Counted from the stretch's first letter, positions 35,681 through 41,890 are shown. The stretch is 64,000 bases of DNA from an uncultured Planctomycetia bacterium (GCA_964634935.1 CAZWJT010000008.1:26063-90062); one strand, 5' to 3'. Numbers and translations are program-made. Notes: generated by a model not told the origin, from the letters alone.

Positions 35681-38600
35681 TTAGCGTTCTGTCTTCTTTA
35701 AAGGAATATTGTGGATGTAGCGGCTCCCTTCAAAAAGGGTGATTTTTTTAATCAGCGGAACCTTGGGAAGATAGTAAACGGGAATTGTGTTTAAATTCAA
35801 AGTGAGCGTATGCTCGCCGGGTTGAACGTTCATAAAAGCATAACTTCCGGAATCATCAGTTATGGATTTCTTGCCGTCTTCAAGGACGAGTACGACCCGG
35901 CGGACGCCCTTATCAACACGGCTATACAACCCATCGTTATCCTTGTCCTCAAAGACAAATCCGGATATTTCTGAACGGGCGGAGATGCCAAAATCAACCC
36001 GTATACACTCATTATGCACGATGGAGACCTTTTGTGTTTGCGGGGTCGTCAGAACAAATCCGTCAGGAATTGTTTTACTATCAAGAGCAACAAGTCCCTT
36101 GTGTTGAGGAACCCGCTCAAATCTATAAAAACCCAGGGAAGAACTCAGGAGCGGATTCTCATGGAACAGAATGATCTTGATTTTTTCTACTCCAGGCTCA
36201 TTGTCCTGGCGTATACCGTCAAAATTAATATCCTGAAATACGTAGCCTTCTATAGACCCGACTGGTTCCCAATGAATTCCCGTATCCCAGAGGGAACGCA
36301 TTCCAAGATTAAAACTCGTTTCGATTCTTTCTTCCACGGCGCGATTCTCAGCCCAGACATTGCGAATCCGCGCCGAACCGAACAATTCCGCGTCGTCATT
36401 CAATCTCCAGGTAAGTGATGAGTAACCTTCGATATAATCTTCTCCGGTAAGAAAACCAAGATTTGATTCGGTGTCTTCCTCATTGCGAAAGAGAAAACGC
36501 ACCGTACTCGAAAGCGGCGTATTCGGAAAAGATCCCGACCAATCAAGACCAGTCTCAAAGGCGGATGGCTTTGAACGTATTCCCGTAAAGCGTTCTTCGA
36601 GCCAGTTGAATTCCCGAGATAGATAGTAAAAAACATTCTTGCCGAGATTAATTCTGGCACTGGCTATGGCGCGTTCATTAAAATAATCGGAACCCGGGGA
36701 AGAGAAATTTTCATTCTCCTGATGGAAAAGATGCAATGAAACTTCCGCGTTATCCGGACGCAAAAGAGAAAATCTTTGTGATATCCCCGCATCAAAATTT
36801 TGATACCGGTATTGAGAAATACGACCAAGTTCATTACGCAGCGTGTAATGAGCCTGCAGAGAAGTATGAGGAGTAAGCCGGTAAAAAGCGCTTAAATCTA
36901 AATCTTGGTTCAGCCGGTGTTCGCTATCCCAAGCAGGATAGATTCTGTCTTGGAACAAATCAAAACTCCCCCGCAGCTCAAGATGCTCGATAGATTGGTT
37001 GTTAAAACTGAAAAGCATCCCAAGTTCTCCTTGGCGCGTAGCACTCCCGGTGCTGGTTGTGTAATCACGGTCGATATTCCTCAATTCAAAATCAAAGCTT
37101 CCCTGCGGTATCGCATGGCGCACCGTAAAAAGATGTGCCGGATCTTCTGGATCAGCCGCAAACTCGTATCCAATACTCCATTGATCAAGTTTCCAGATTC
37201 CACGTAAATCATACCCAACCGGGTTCAACTCAACCTCGCGATCTTTTCCAAAACCATGCACAACAGTCGCACTGTATTCCTGCGTAGCATCCGGAATATA
37301 CTGCACATGGAAACCGTCAATAAACGCGTCCCTCTCACTGGTGAGACTCGGAGAAATAAACCCATATCCTAACGTATGTTCTCTTCCGGCAAAAGCGGTG
37401 TAACGGATCTTTTTATTGAATGCTGCGGCCGAAAGCATACCCCCTCTTAGACTAATACCTGGAAATACCAAATTCGCAAAATCCGGAGGCCGCTCAAAAA
37501 AATCAAATGCGCGCAGACTAAACCCATCAAAGGTGCCGATATGCCCGTCAGTAATCCCCAGCGTAACCGTGTTGAGCTCGAGTTCCTTTTGGAAACGGCT
37601 CACCGAAAGAGAAGCATCTAAATTACCGTAAGGCGTCGGACCATAAAGCCCTATGGTATGGGTATAAAAATAATCCGTTCGGCCAAGATCGTCCAGGCTC
37701 GGCCCACGCTCATAGAGCGACCAATCAGTCGCCGAGCTTACTTTGAAATTATTTCTCCGCGAAAATTCATCAAGTGCCTTCTGTTGTAAATTTTCCCCTG
37801 CCGGCTTTTGCGGTATAGTTAAGAATTGAATTGTGGCTCTTCCCTGGTCGTTCCAGATATGCAAATAGGTATACCCGAGTTCTTTCCCGGTAACAAAAAT
37901 ACGGTCTGTGCCCGTACGCTCAGCGGTAATGATCCCCTCTTGGGTAACGAGAATTCTTCGAACGCCGGAGCTTACAATCAAAATACTTTTCTCCTGCTCT
38001 ATTTGAAATGCTTCGGCTTTTAAGTCGAGAAGCTTTTGAAGAGATATCTCAACCGGCGGCTGACTTTCCGTGGCCTTCGTTGCAACATGCTGCGCAATAC
38101 GTCTTTCTTCTTGCCGCTCTACTGGCACAGGCATTGGCGCCGTTGGCTCTGGTTGTGGCATGTACTTCGGGGCGCTCACCAATGCCCTGGTATCTTGAAG
38201 CACAATCGTTTTTTTTGCATCGGGTTTTCCCCCGACAACTGGCTGAACAGGAATTGATGTCACCGCTGGGCCGGGAAAATCTTCGTAAACAAAATCAACT
38301 TGTATATTACGCAGTTGTGCCGTGTTTTGCATCCCAAGCACAACCCTTGTTTTCTTAGGGTGATCTCGGCCTTGAGCAGAAACAGGAAAAACATCTTCTG
38401 TTTCAAAAATTAAATCTTCTCCAGCCCCATACGCAGTAGTCTGGTATTGATATGAAACCTTAGGTCTTGAGGTTATCTTCTTAGACCAAGTTTTTTCCTG
38501 GATGGGTATGGCACGCTTGAGTATTTCTATTTTCTCGATGTACCCAAGTACTTTTTGGTTCTCTGGATCTAAAACCAGCAATTTCTTAAACTCACTCAGC

Positions 38601-38905
38601 GCTTGATCATATCGTTTTTCTTGATAGAGTTGGGAGGCAGATTCAAAGAGAAAATCAAACGATAAAGGATAGTTTTCAGCGAGCGAAGAAAGGCTTAAAA
38701 GAAACAGAATCAAGAATAATTTTATCGAACGATAAAGCGATGAAGCTAAAAGGGCATTTTTTATCGCAGGAGTTGGAAACGAAAAATTACTGAATTGACC
38801 CAAGACGAAGAATCTCCCCTTGCGACCCAACCTCAACCTCCGCTTCTTTTGTAAGCACAAATTCGGAGCCGGCATTTTCTTCTTCGAGAGATCTTCCAAG
38901 ATCAA
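35681..38905 (-). CDS. Large outer-membrane protein: TPR + CpaC-N-like pilus-formation domain + beta-barrel-like region + C-terminal Cna-B/SdrD-B-like domains
   Basis: TPR-like segment SASQLYQEKRYDQALSEFKKLLVLDPENQKVLGYIEKI. Pilus-N-like segment ILIVSSGVRRILVTQEGIITAERTGTDRIFVTGKELGYTYLHIWNDQGRATIQF. A roughly 450 aa Tyr/Phe-rich amphipathic-strand region. C-terminal repeats VFQDINFDGIRQDNEPGVEKIKIILF and FVFEDKDNDGLYSRVDKGVRRVVLVLEDGKKSITDDSGSYAF. No secretin C-domain motif and no usher plug recognised. The true start is uncertain, probably ATG at 38875 (MPAPNL...), which overlaps the upstream gene. Confidence 0.7.
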   Translation of the reverse strand: MILEDLSKKKMPAPNLCLQKKRRLRLGRKGRFFVLGQFSNFSFPTPAIKNALLASSLYRSIKLFLILFLLSLSSLAENYPLSFDFLFESASQLYQEKRYDQALSEFKKLLVLDPENQKVLGYIEKIEILKRAIPIQEKTWSKKITSRPKVSYQYQTTAYGAGEDLIFETEDVFPVSAQGRDHPKKTRVVLGMQNTAQLRNIQVDFVYEDFPGPAVTSIPVQPVVGGKPDAKKTIVLQDTRALVSAPKYMPQPEPTAPMPVPVERQEERRIAQHVATKATESQPPVEISLQKLLDLKAEAFQIEQEKSILIVSSGVRRILVTQEGIITAERTGTDRIFVTGKELGYTYLHIWNDQGRATIQFLTIPQKPAGENLQQKALDEFSRRNNFKVSSATDWSLYERGPSLDDLGRTDYFYTHTIGLYGPTPYGNLDASLSVSRFQKELELNTVTLGITDGHIGTFDGFSLRAFDFFERPPDFANLVFPGISLRGGMLSAAAFNKKIRYTAFAGREHTLGYGFISPSLTSERDAFIDGFHVQYIPDATQEYSATVVHGFGKDREVELNPVGYDLRGIWKLDQWSIGYEFAADPEDPAHLFTVRHAIPQGSFDFELRNIDRDYTTSTGSATRQGELGMLFSFNNQSIEHLELRGSFDLFQDRIYPAWDSEHRLNQDLDLSAFYRLTPHTSLQAHYTLRNELGRISQYRYQNFDAGISQRFSLLRPDNAEVSLHLFHQENENFSSPGSDYFNERAIASARINLGKNVFYYLSREFNWLEERFTGIRSKPSAFETGLDWSGSFPNTPLSSTVRFLFRNEEDTESNLGFLTGEDYIEGYSSLTWRLNDDAELFGSARIRNVWAENRAVEERIETSFNLGMRSLWDTGIHWEPVGSIEGYVFQDINFDGIRQDNEPGVEKIKIILFHENPLLSSSLGFYRFERVPQHKGLVALDSKTIPDGFVLTTPQTQKVSIVHNECIRVDFGISARSEISGFVFEDKDNDGLYSRVDKGVRRVVLVLEDGKKSITDDSGSYAFMNVQPGEHTLTLNLNTIPVYYLPKVPLIKKITLFEGSRYIHNIPLKKTER

Positions 38906-39653
38906 TCGTCATCACGAGGCTATACGTGCCTGGAAGCACCATCCCCGGAGTAACCGCTTGCAAAGAAGCGCTCCCACCCGGAAACGTGTATACATCCTTA
39001 AATTCACCGCGCAGCTGCACGATACCATCCCGATCTATCAGATGAAAAGTCCCGCCCGCGGTAATATCGACATTCCCTGTATTTTTCAAATCACAGGAAA
39101 GTACGTATTCTTCCTTCACTCTATCGATCTTGAAATTCTCAAGCGCCGCTGTACGGATAATCGTGCTTTCTGGCTCTAGATAAAAGAGGGTCGCGATACG
39201 GATAGCAATATTCATCCCTGCACTTAAAGCTCCCCCGCGCTGCTCAATCTTGCCAAACATGCTCTCAAAAAACAAAGCAGCATAATGACCGCCTTTTGCG
39301 TCAGGCGGCACTTTTACAGAATAGCTGACTTTTTGTTTTGTAAAGGGTTTTAACACAAATTCAGCTGGGGAAAAGGTAATCCAAGAAGCGCATGAGAGCG
39401 GAGTTGTCCCAGCAGGAGAAAATTCCTTGGTGCCATCAGCAGCGGGGAGATACGTCCAATCCCCCAAATATACCCGCATTGCACGTTCTTCAGCGGTGGT
39501 ATTCTCAACCACTATATCTCCATAACCGCTTTGGCCGGGTATGATTGAAATCCGTATCTTAGTTTTATTGATTGAGGGAAGTTCTACGGCAAGACACAGA
39601 GAGGCAGATAGAAAGAAAAAAAGAAAGAAAGTTATGTTCTGAAAACGCTTCAT
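38787..39653 (-). CDS. Secreted two-domain SCPU/Csu-like beta-sandwich protein (fibre subunit or assembly factor)
   Basis: Signal peptide MKRFQNITFFLFFFLSASLCLA from ATG 39653. Two roughly 130-150 aa units, each ending in the G-x-Y-x-x-x-V/I-x-F/Y-x-L motif (GGHYAALFFESMF; GTYSLVMTIDL). The track ORF start at 39692 lies inside the palindrome. Confidence 0.6.
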   Translation of the reverse strand: MKRFQNITFFLFFFLSASLCLAVELPSINKTKIRISIIPGQSGYGDIVVENTTAEERAMRVYLGDWTYLPAADGTKEFSPAGTTPLSCASWITFSPAEFVLKPFTKQKVSYSVKVPPDAKGGHYAALFFESMFGKIEQRGGALSAGMNIAIRIATLFYLEPESTIIRTAALENFKIDRVKEEYVLSCDLKNTGNVDITAGGTFHLIDRDGIVQLRGEFKDVYTFPGGSASLQAVTPGMVLPGTYSLVMTIDLGRSLEEENAGSEFVLTKEAEVEVGSQGEILRLGSIQ

Positions 39654-41763: not shown

Positions 41764-41862
41764 GGCTTTCACTATCGTAGAGATAGTGCGTATTTTTCGA
41801 GTTTAATAAGACGTCCAGGAATGATACTTAGTACTTTTTAAACATATTAAATAAGTAAATTT

Positions 41863-41890
41863 AGTATACATCTTTTGTTGTATTTGTCAA
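41863..41890 (-). promoter_or_regulatory. Candidate sigma70 promoter of the fibre cluster (TTGACA-N16-TATACT, minus strand)
   Basis: Minus strand: TTGACA at 41890-41885, 16 nt spacer, TATACT at 41868-41863. About 95 nt upstream of the first gene of the cluster. Confidence 0.45.

Follow-up and report, generated by a model that had tools for sequence, protein, structure and literature searches.

Most described chaperone-usher pili come from Proteobacteria, and a smaller number from Cyanobacteria and Deinococcus-Thermus. The described systems closest to the locus studied here are the alternate (class 5/alpha) chaperone-usher pili, represented by CFA/I (CfaA-B-C-E), CS1 and the E. coli common pilus (EcpA-E), the archaic (sigma) chaperone-usher pili with SCPU subunits (Csu, CupE and Myxococcus Mcu), the WxL clusters of Firmicutes, which combine WxLIP (DUF916-DUF3324) with a short and a long WxL protein, and, for a single periplasmic domain, the CpaC/RcpA secretins of Tad pili. 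No report of chaperone-usher or PapD systems in Omnitrophota was found in the literature searched. Here, we describe a gene cluster located at positions 35681-41890 of a stretch of DNA of 64,000 nt (the window), which we judge with moderate confidence to encode a highly diverged fibre system of the chaperone-usher type that is restricted to Candidatus Omnitrophota and widespread there.

The calling of open reading frames (ORFs) in the window revealed four tightly packed co-directional ORFs on the minus strand, as proposed in an earlier note on this DNA, and a fifth gene, convergent to them, which that note had missed. The five products are designated by a letter followed by their length in amino acids:

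A465: 40375..41772, minus strand, 465 aa (462 aa in the public call), secreted protein with three tandem pilin-like beta-sandwich domains
B191: 39712..40287, minus strand, 191 aa (same in the public call), secreted single-domain putative subunit
C301: 38787..39692, minus strand, 301 aa (297 aa in the public call), predicted two-domain PapD-like periplasmic chaperone
D1074: 35681..38905, minus strand, 1074 aa (1040 aa, from 38803, in the database call), candidate outer-membrane platform
E111: 35284..35619, plus strand, 111 aa, small secreted protein, convergent to D1074

Conservation of the gene cluster

In total, 78 loci were retrieved from species encoding a relative of C301, and their ORFs were called and then searched with the proteins of the window. 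Homologues of C301 fall into at least 155 clusters, and those bearing names belong to Candidatus Omnitrophota; when one genome was scanned for each species, 125 species proved to encode a C301 relative. The gene for D lies directly 3' of that for C in 67 of the 71 loci that extend far enough to contain it, 58 of the 60 related loci with sufficient upstream DNA contain A, and one or two fast-evolving B-type genes are situated between A and C. Furthermore, E follows D directly on the opposite strand in 40 of 59 loci. About 80 species-level genomes of Omnitrophota share the order putative tip, putative major subunit, chaperone and outer-membrane protein, and the genes flanking the cluster are unlike from genome to genome. 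Since this gene content and order recur across loci with differing flanks, the cluster is a genuine operon found across the phylum rather than a product of chance. The homologues of its products are annotated as 'hypothetical protein', with the exception of one C301 homologue from the Joint Genome Institute (JGI) labelled 'P pilus assembly chaperone PapD'. B191 has 73 relatives, all of them unannotated, and every one with an organism label is from Omnitrophota.

Several variants of the arrangement were observed. Four loci (L015, L066, L068 and L072) carry, upstream of the A-type gene, a multi-domain gene of 487-521 aa related to B191, and five others (L019, L024, L027, L037 and L040) contain two chaperone-like genes with the A-type gene between them. 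Some related loci (L007, L010, L017, L019 and others) come from metagenome-assembled genomes labelled 'uncultured Planctomycetales/Planctomycetia', and L048 and L051 are labelled, one 'Margulisiibacteriota' and the other 'Clostridia'. These labels may be due to errors of labelling or binning, or the cluster may on rare occasions be present outside Omnitrophota.

Chaperone, subunits and outer-membrane protein

A Sec-type signal peptide can be read in the sequence of each of A465, B191, C301 and D1074, and none of A465, B191 and C301 has a Pfam or NCBIfam match. For C301, an AlphaFold2 (AF2) model built from an alignment of 82 sequences is a two-domain all-beta structure (pLDDT 93, pTM 0.83) whose sole soft region is the long loop before the strand at residues 158-170. 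When this model was used as a query in Foldseek, dozens of chaperone-usher chaperones were retrieved with a probability of 1.0, and the best TM-scores (0.63-0.65, normalised to the target) were obtained with CfaA. At the sequence level, the C301 family profile matched EcpB over the F1-G1 region (E 0.005); hhalign comparison of the family with EcpB gave 84% (E 7e-6), and comparison with an alignment of six chaperones gave a score of 37, against 10.8 for the reversed control. In the chaperones PapD and FimC, the C-terminus of the subunit is anchored by two basic residues of the cleft, Arg8 in strand A1 and Lys112 in strand G1. The first strand of C301 contains a nearly invariant arginine, R43, which hhalign places on Arg8 of FimC, and a second nearly invariant arginine, R161, lies in the predicted G1 strand. 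Weak Pfam matches within the family are restricted to fn3_5, WxLIP_PGBD and similar models. On the basis of the model and these comparisons, C301 is clearly predicted to be a periplasmic two-domain PapD-like chaperone, a component that the earlier note had declared missing. That note had instead counted 3, 1 and 2 copies of one domain in A465, B191 and C301, respectively. The count stands for the first two proteins and fails for C301, because its two domains, which show the PapD-like fold, are not homologous copies of the A/B domain (hhalign probability at most 25%).

A465 is made up of three domains, each about 140-150 aa long and homologous to the other two (hhalign 99.5-99.9%, E 1e-23 to 1e-32), and B191 carries one domain homologous to them (96%, E 1.6e-9). 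The consensus lines of the alignments show that each A/B domain ends in the motif G-x-Y-x-G/R-x-h-x-h-x-h, which bears out the terminal strand described in the earlier note. B191 terminates exactly after this strand, with the C-terminus G-S-Y-A-G-T-V-T-L-T-L-S-P-COOH, and possesses about 20 extra N-terminal residues of alternating pattern (TTIRIAANIG; family pattern h-x-h-x-A-x-h-P). A search of the PDB with the A-family profile returned, as its best and sole credible match, an engineered fusion of CfaE and CfaB with donor-strand complementation (3F83; E 0.0046). In this alignment, the ends of the A domains fall on pilin F strands (EAGQYMGNIKITFTP and TAGNYSGVVSLVMTL), and the inter-domain linkers of A465 fall on the CfaB donor strand (VEKNITVTASVDPVIDL). 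Additionally, hhalign of the B family with five CS1-type major pilins from plasmids aligned the N-terminal strand (71%, score 38) and the C-terminal strand (17%, score 28), with a score of 17 for the reversed control. Taken together with the chaperone, these weak subunit similarities indicate the same clade, that of the alternate, or class-5, chaperone-usher pili.

The SCPU/Csu-type affiliation given to the subunits in the earlier note was not borne out. The Pfam SCPU model (PF05229) never matched in the A or B families, DUF4402 (PF14352) appeared faintly in 3 of 48 B members and 2 of 63 A members (E 0.07-0.19), so that membership of the SCPU/DUF4402 pilin superfamily is unsupported by Pfam, and the best solved relatives are CfaE and CfaB. 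The WxL family is likewise absent from the Pfam matches of both families, and no WxL chain occurs among their PDB profile matches; the sole match in the PDB search with the B family was a phage cement protein (E 0.15). As to function, A465 is plausibly a candidate tip fibrillum or adhesin, and B191 plausibly a candidate major subunit, in keeping with the secreted-fibre-type operon with pilin-like beta-sandwich subunits, a one-domain major subunit and a three-domain tip proposed earlier. Both proteins would consist of incomplete Ig folds that are completed by donor-strand complementation and exchange as they form a fibre.

The order of elements in D1074 is a signal peptide, one TPR, a variable linker, a pil_N domain, a barrel region of about 510 aa and two SdrD_B/transthyretin-like domains. 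In Pfam, the two C-terminal SdrD_B domains were recognised with an E-value of 1.6e-13 and T2SS-T3SS_pil_N (PF13629) at residues 297-357 with 5.9e-7, together with one weak TPR, which agrees with the TPR, CpaC/RcpA-N-like and Cna-B/SdrD-B-like domains read in this protein earlier. The TPR is optional across the family. Among ten further members sampled, nine of which were among the lowest-scoring of those listed, all ten carry the SdrD_B-type C-terminal domains and seven carry pil_N. Roughly 24-26 amphipathic strands were counted by eye in the central region on the family alignment profile, and the barrel regions of 63 members gave only scattered weak Pfam matches to OMP_b-brl, BBP2_2 and Porin_4. 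The Secretin domain (PF00263) is not found in D1074, the best PDB secretin match having an E-value of 1.8, and comparisons of the whole protein and of its barrel with the PDB, by sequence and by profile, matched only the TPR and SdrD and no usher. The earlier note took D1074 to be neither a FimD/PapC-type usher nor a secretin, and the protein is indeed not recognisable as either by Pfam, by PDB profile searches or by an exhaustive HMMER search, all of which were without such a match. The modular order of the protein, with a periplasmic N-terminal module (TPR and pil_N), a central region of about 510 residues and two C-terminal beta-sandwiches, appears usher-like, and D1074 is a candidate outer-membrane assembly platform.

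The mature N-terminus of the small protein E111 is conserved as S-I-x-V-S-C-T-I-P-x-I-P-G and resembles the N-terminal strand of B191; after it come a low-complexity linker that varies between homologues and a C-terminus conserved as h-h-x-T-x-Y-S-R. The E and B families align by hhalign over the signal peptide and the N-terminal strand (95.8%, E 7e-9), whereas comparisons of E with the A and C families, which have signal peptides too, yielded just 5-15 aligned columns. E111 is a candidate donor-strand-only cap, terminator or anchor.

Regulatory features and genomic surroundings

The annotated starts of two genes call for comment. The longest D1074 ORF begins with a TTG at 38905 and overlaps the 3' end of C301 by 119 nt; the homologues of D1074 align only from about the signal peptide onward, and the database start is at 38803. 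For C301, the ATG at 39653 (MKRFQ...) is likely to be the true start rather than the GTG at 39692, because the longest ORF extends into a hairpin. This hairpin, overlooked in the earlier note, and two promoter-like sites are located as follows:

Promoter-like TTGACA-N16-TATACT: 41863..41890, minus strand, 11/12 matches, about 90 nt 5' of A465
Second promoter-like site TTGACC-17-TATAAT: 39701..39729, minus strand, 11/12 matches, overlapping the end of B191, just 5' of the hairpin
Hairpin: 39667..39697, minus strand, perfect 14-bp stem with a 3-nt loop, between the B191 stop and the C301 start

The first promoter-like site had been pointed out before and is indeed present, but such sites are no commoner in the region than in shuffled sequences (9 found against 10.5 expected). 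It is a consensus match only, and a candidate promoter; the second site could serve the genes for the chaperone and the outer-membrane protein as an internal promoter. No run of T follows the hairpin. A stable RNA structure recurs after the B gene, with a median z of -2.6 in 37 loci versus about 0 after the A or C genes, and the hairpin is a candidate mRNA stabiliser or attenuator that would raise the ratio of subunit to chaperone. In pap-type operons, a major structural subunit is over-expressed, and the recurrent structure fits such over-expression.

Directly downstream of the cluster, at 28775-34648 (minus strand), lies a complete F-type ATP synthase operon, an adjacency seen only in this genome (L003). 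ATPase operons adjoining type IV pilus genes have been reported in Omnitrophota (PMC10066038), and the neighbourhood observed here may or may not be meaningful. Elsewhere in the window, also on the minus strand, there are a gene for a 2002-aa bacterial alpha-2-macroglobulin-like protein with A2M, MG2 and bMG10 domains (10929-16937), and exopolysaccharide-type genes (5356-10313) encoding a chain-length determinant similar to Wzz, a sugar transferase (Bac_transf) and a putative beta-barrel porin of the BBP2_2 family, which is also among the families that weakly match a few homologues of the D barrel.

Proposed assembly and comparison with known systems

A chaperone-usher-type pathway for this cluster might operate as follows. 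All five products would be exported by the Sec system. In the periplasm, the long F1-G1 hairpin of C301 would lend a strand to cap the open groove of the pilin-like domains, and the conserved arginine in strand A1 would help to hold the subunit. The pil_N domain of D1074, with or without the TPR, would then receive the chaperone-subunit complexes. B191 would polymerise by donor-strand exchange, its N-terminal strand displacing the chaperone strand in the previously added subunit. A465 would occupy the tip as a covalently pre-linked unit of three domains, with its linkers acting as internal donor strands. The fibre would be extruded through the D1074 barrel of roughly 24-26 strands, and its base would be held by the two C-terminal beta-sandwiches, as the C-terminal domains (CTDs) of ushers do. 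Finally, E111, which has a donor-strand-like N-terminus and no pilin body, might cap or anchor the last subunit.

Several observations weigh against this interpretation. No experimental work on homologues of the cluster proteins was found in the literature, and none of the Pfam fimbrial models matched any of the proteins; in particular, PapD_N and PapD_C matched 0 of the 82 C301 family members, and Usher, PapC_N and PapC_C gave no match in D1074 or in the 63 barrel regions, Usher being absent from the latter even at E-values up to 10. The subunit-to-pilin similarities are marginal (E 0.0046; hhalign 17-71%), and the AF2 model of D1074 is of low confidence (pLDDT 42, from a 5-sequence alignment). 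The lowest Foldseek E-value of C301 (3.8e-11) was obtained not with a pilus chaperone but with the WxLIP of Enterococcus (E. faecium), so that by this measure C301 is at least as close to WxLIP, which is a stable surface partner and not a recycling chaperone. An exhaustive HMMER search with the D barrel against 1.84 billion protein representatives yielded 202 clusters, of which 178 had E-values below 1e-10; they form a closed family, and no tail of remote matches followed. Furthermore, the barrel alone showed no significant similarity to ushers, its hhalign score being 35 and that of the reversed control 31, the comparison of the conserved segment 395-500 with the usher plug region remained at control level, showing no plug-like similarity, and that of pil_N with the usher N-terminal domain (NTD) did so too, showing no NTD-like similarity.

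The last of these results come from comparisons of D with 11 classical ushers, with 8 alternate ushers and with all 19 (FimD, Caf1A, MrkC, CstB, PefC, FedC, FaeD, EcpC, TcfC/CooC-like and others), each comparison being paired with a reversed-profile control, and they bear directly on the possibility that D is a true but extremely diverged usher and the operon a distant offshoot of the alternate (alpha, class 5) family. Full-length D aligned with ushers at 70-74% (E about 3e-5, score 55-57, reversed controls at most 35), the alignment with all 19 (74%, E 2.9e-5, score 56.6) being collinear over 299 columns that cover the late barrel and the CTDs. D also occupies the gene position of an usher, is of similar size with a comparable estimated number of strands, and is accompanied by components that all point to class-5 systems. 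However, the full-length signal is due to the two C-terminal domains, both of which align weakly with usher CTD1 (hhalign scores of 33 and 31.5, against 16 for the reversed control) and share with it an h-x-h-D-x2-3-LP motif. The absence of similarity in barrel, plug and NTD, the failure of the Usher model in 63 members, the lack of bridge sequences in HMMER and the presence of an N-terminal pil_N domain, absent from ushers, make a true usher unlikely. At the other extreme, the earlier note envisaged a distinct assembly route unrelated to chaperone-usher systems, with structural subunits of 3, 1 and 2 domains, a new exporter and no chaperone. The missing Usher, PapD and Secretin matches in Pfam, the control-level score of the barrel against ushers and the closed barrel family, unrelated by HMMER to anything else, agree with that proposal, but its 'no chaperone' part is largely refuted by the PapD-like two-domain fold of C301, which has a conserved arginine aligned with that of strand A1 and is not homologous to the A/B domain. 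The best, though weak, similarity of the subunits to class-5 pilins and the resemblance of the D CTDs to usher CTD1 also speak against this proposal, the least probable of the explanations considered. Its wording was too strong because the chaperone and subunit half of the cluster resembles a distant class-5 chaperone-usher relative, and only the outer-membrane component is unrecognised. Of the two components by which that note would have identified an ordinary chaperone-usher operon, a PapD-like chaperone was found and a conventional usher was not.

A static surface complex similar to the WxL clusters was also considered, in which C301 would be the counterpart of WxLIP, bound by strand insertion to the small B191 and the large A465, with D serving only for export or anchoring and no polymer being formed. 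The best Foldseek matches of C301 included, besides the E. faecium WxLIP mentioned above, a WxLIP bound to a long WxL protein, and the Pfam model WxLIP_PGBD was detected weakly in 16 of the 82 family members (best E 3e-4). The commonest WxL cluster, made up of one WxLIP, one short and one long WxL protein, parallels C, B and A, and WxLIP is predicted to complete the WxL sandwich with a strand of an inserted hairpin (PMC10599100). Nevertheless, nearly all WxLIPs have a C-terminal transmembrane helix (PMC10599100), whereas none can be read in the sequence of C301. Neither A nor B has a WxL match in Pfam, and the A profile matches the pilins CfaE/CfaB instead. The donor-strand-like N-terminal extension that B shares with CS1 pilins would be needless in a static complex, and nothing in WxL clusters corresponds to a large, dedicated outer-membrane barrel whose C-terminal domains resemble those of ushers. 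We regard a static complex as improbable, to about the same degree as a true usher, and favour a very divergent chaperone-usher-type system. A more far-reaching version, which we put forward as a tentative possibility, holds that D1074 evolved independently as a plug-less pilus-assembly platform composed of pil_N, a barrel of about 24-26 strands and transthyretin-like domains, forming with its PapD-like chaperone a second 'chaperone plus platform' pathway. The Omnitrophota system, the class-5 chaperone-usher pili and the Gram-positive WxL clusters would in that case share a single ancient ancestor, a strand-complementing-chaperone module, and E111 would represent a new type of donor-strand-only terminator or anchor.

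Because Omnitrophota are mostly ultra-small cells for which host-dependent or predatory lifestyles are suspected, a conserved, phylum-wide and unannotated operon for a putative adhesive fibre is a concrete candidate for their attachment to hosts. The attachment factors discussed in a large survey of the phylum are type IVa pili, Tad pili and giant ORFs only (PMC10066038). Moreover, the pairing of a clear PapD-like chaperone with an outer-membrane protein that cannot be recognised as an usher bears on how the usher arose, and the cluster also bears on whether strand-complementing chaperones (PapD-like and WxLIP) are older than the divergence of diderm from monoderm surface systems.

Among known systems, the CpaC/RcpA secretins of Tad pili have in common with D1074 the T2SS-T3SS_pil_N periplasmic domain, but D1074 lacks the secretin domain, the remainder of the protein being a monomeric-type amphipathic barrel region and SdrD_B-like domains, and no Tad genes occur in the cluster. 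The Firmicutes WxL clusters follow the same logic of a small, a large and a two-domain gene, and their two-Ig-domain partner protein, WxLIP, is the top Foldseek match of C301. They differ in being monoderm systems with no outer-membrane component, in the transmembrane helix of WxLIP and in the WxL domain, of which A and B show no W-x-L signal in Pfam; polymerisation of WxL proteins is not known.

The class-5 pili differ from the cluster in their host phylum (Proteobacteria versus Omnitrophota) and in the Pfam models of their pathway, none of which is matched by the cluster proteins. Their outer-membrane protein is an usher, with a 24-strand barrel, an inserted plug, a chaperone-binding NTD and two CTDs, whereas the D barrel has no significant usher similarity and pil_N, with or without TPR, is found instead; their tip combines an adhesin domain with a pilin domain, whereas that proposed here, A465, has three homologous pilin-like domains; and the donor-strand-like E111 is an extra component of the cluster. 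In both cases, however, a small operon of about four genes encodes a tip and a major subunit, both putative in the cluster, a two-domain PapD-like chaperone and a large outer-membrane protein of 800-1000 aa. C301 is nearest to CfaA by structure and to EcpB by sequence, the best solved match of the subunit profile is CfaE-CfaB, the N-terminal h-x-h-x-A-x-h-P and C-terminal G-x-Y-x-G-x-h-x-h-x-h strands are shared with CS1-type pilins, and the outer-membrane protein terminates in beta-sandwiches weakly similar to usher CTD1. In summary, what is new with respect to the described systems is the outer-membrane partner, the three-domain putative tip, the small protein E111 and the phylum, whereas the chaperone and the donor-strand logic are already known from them.

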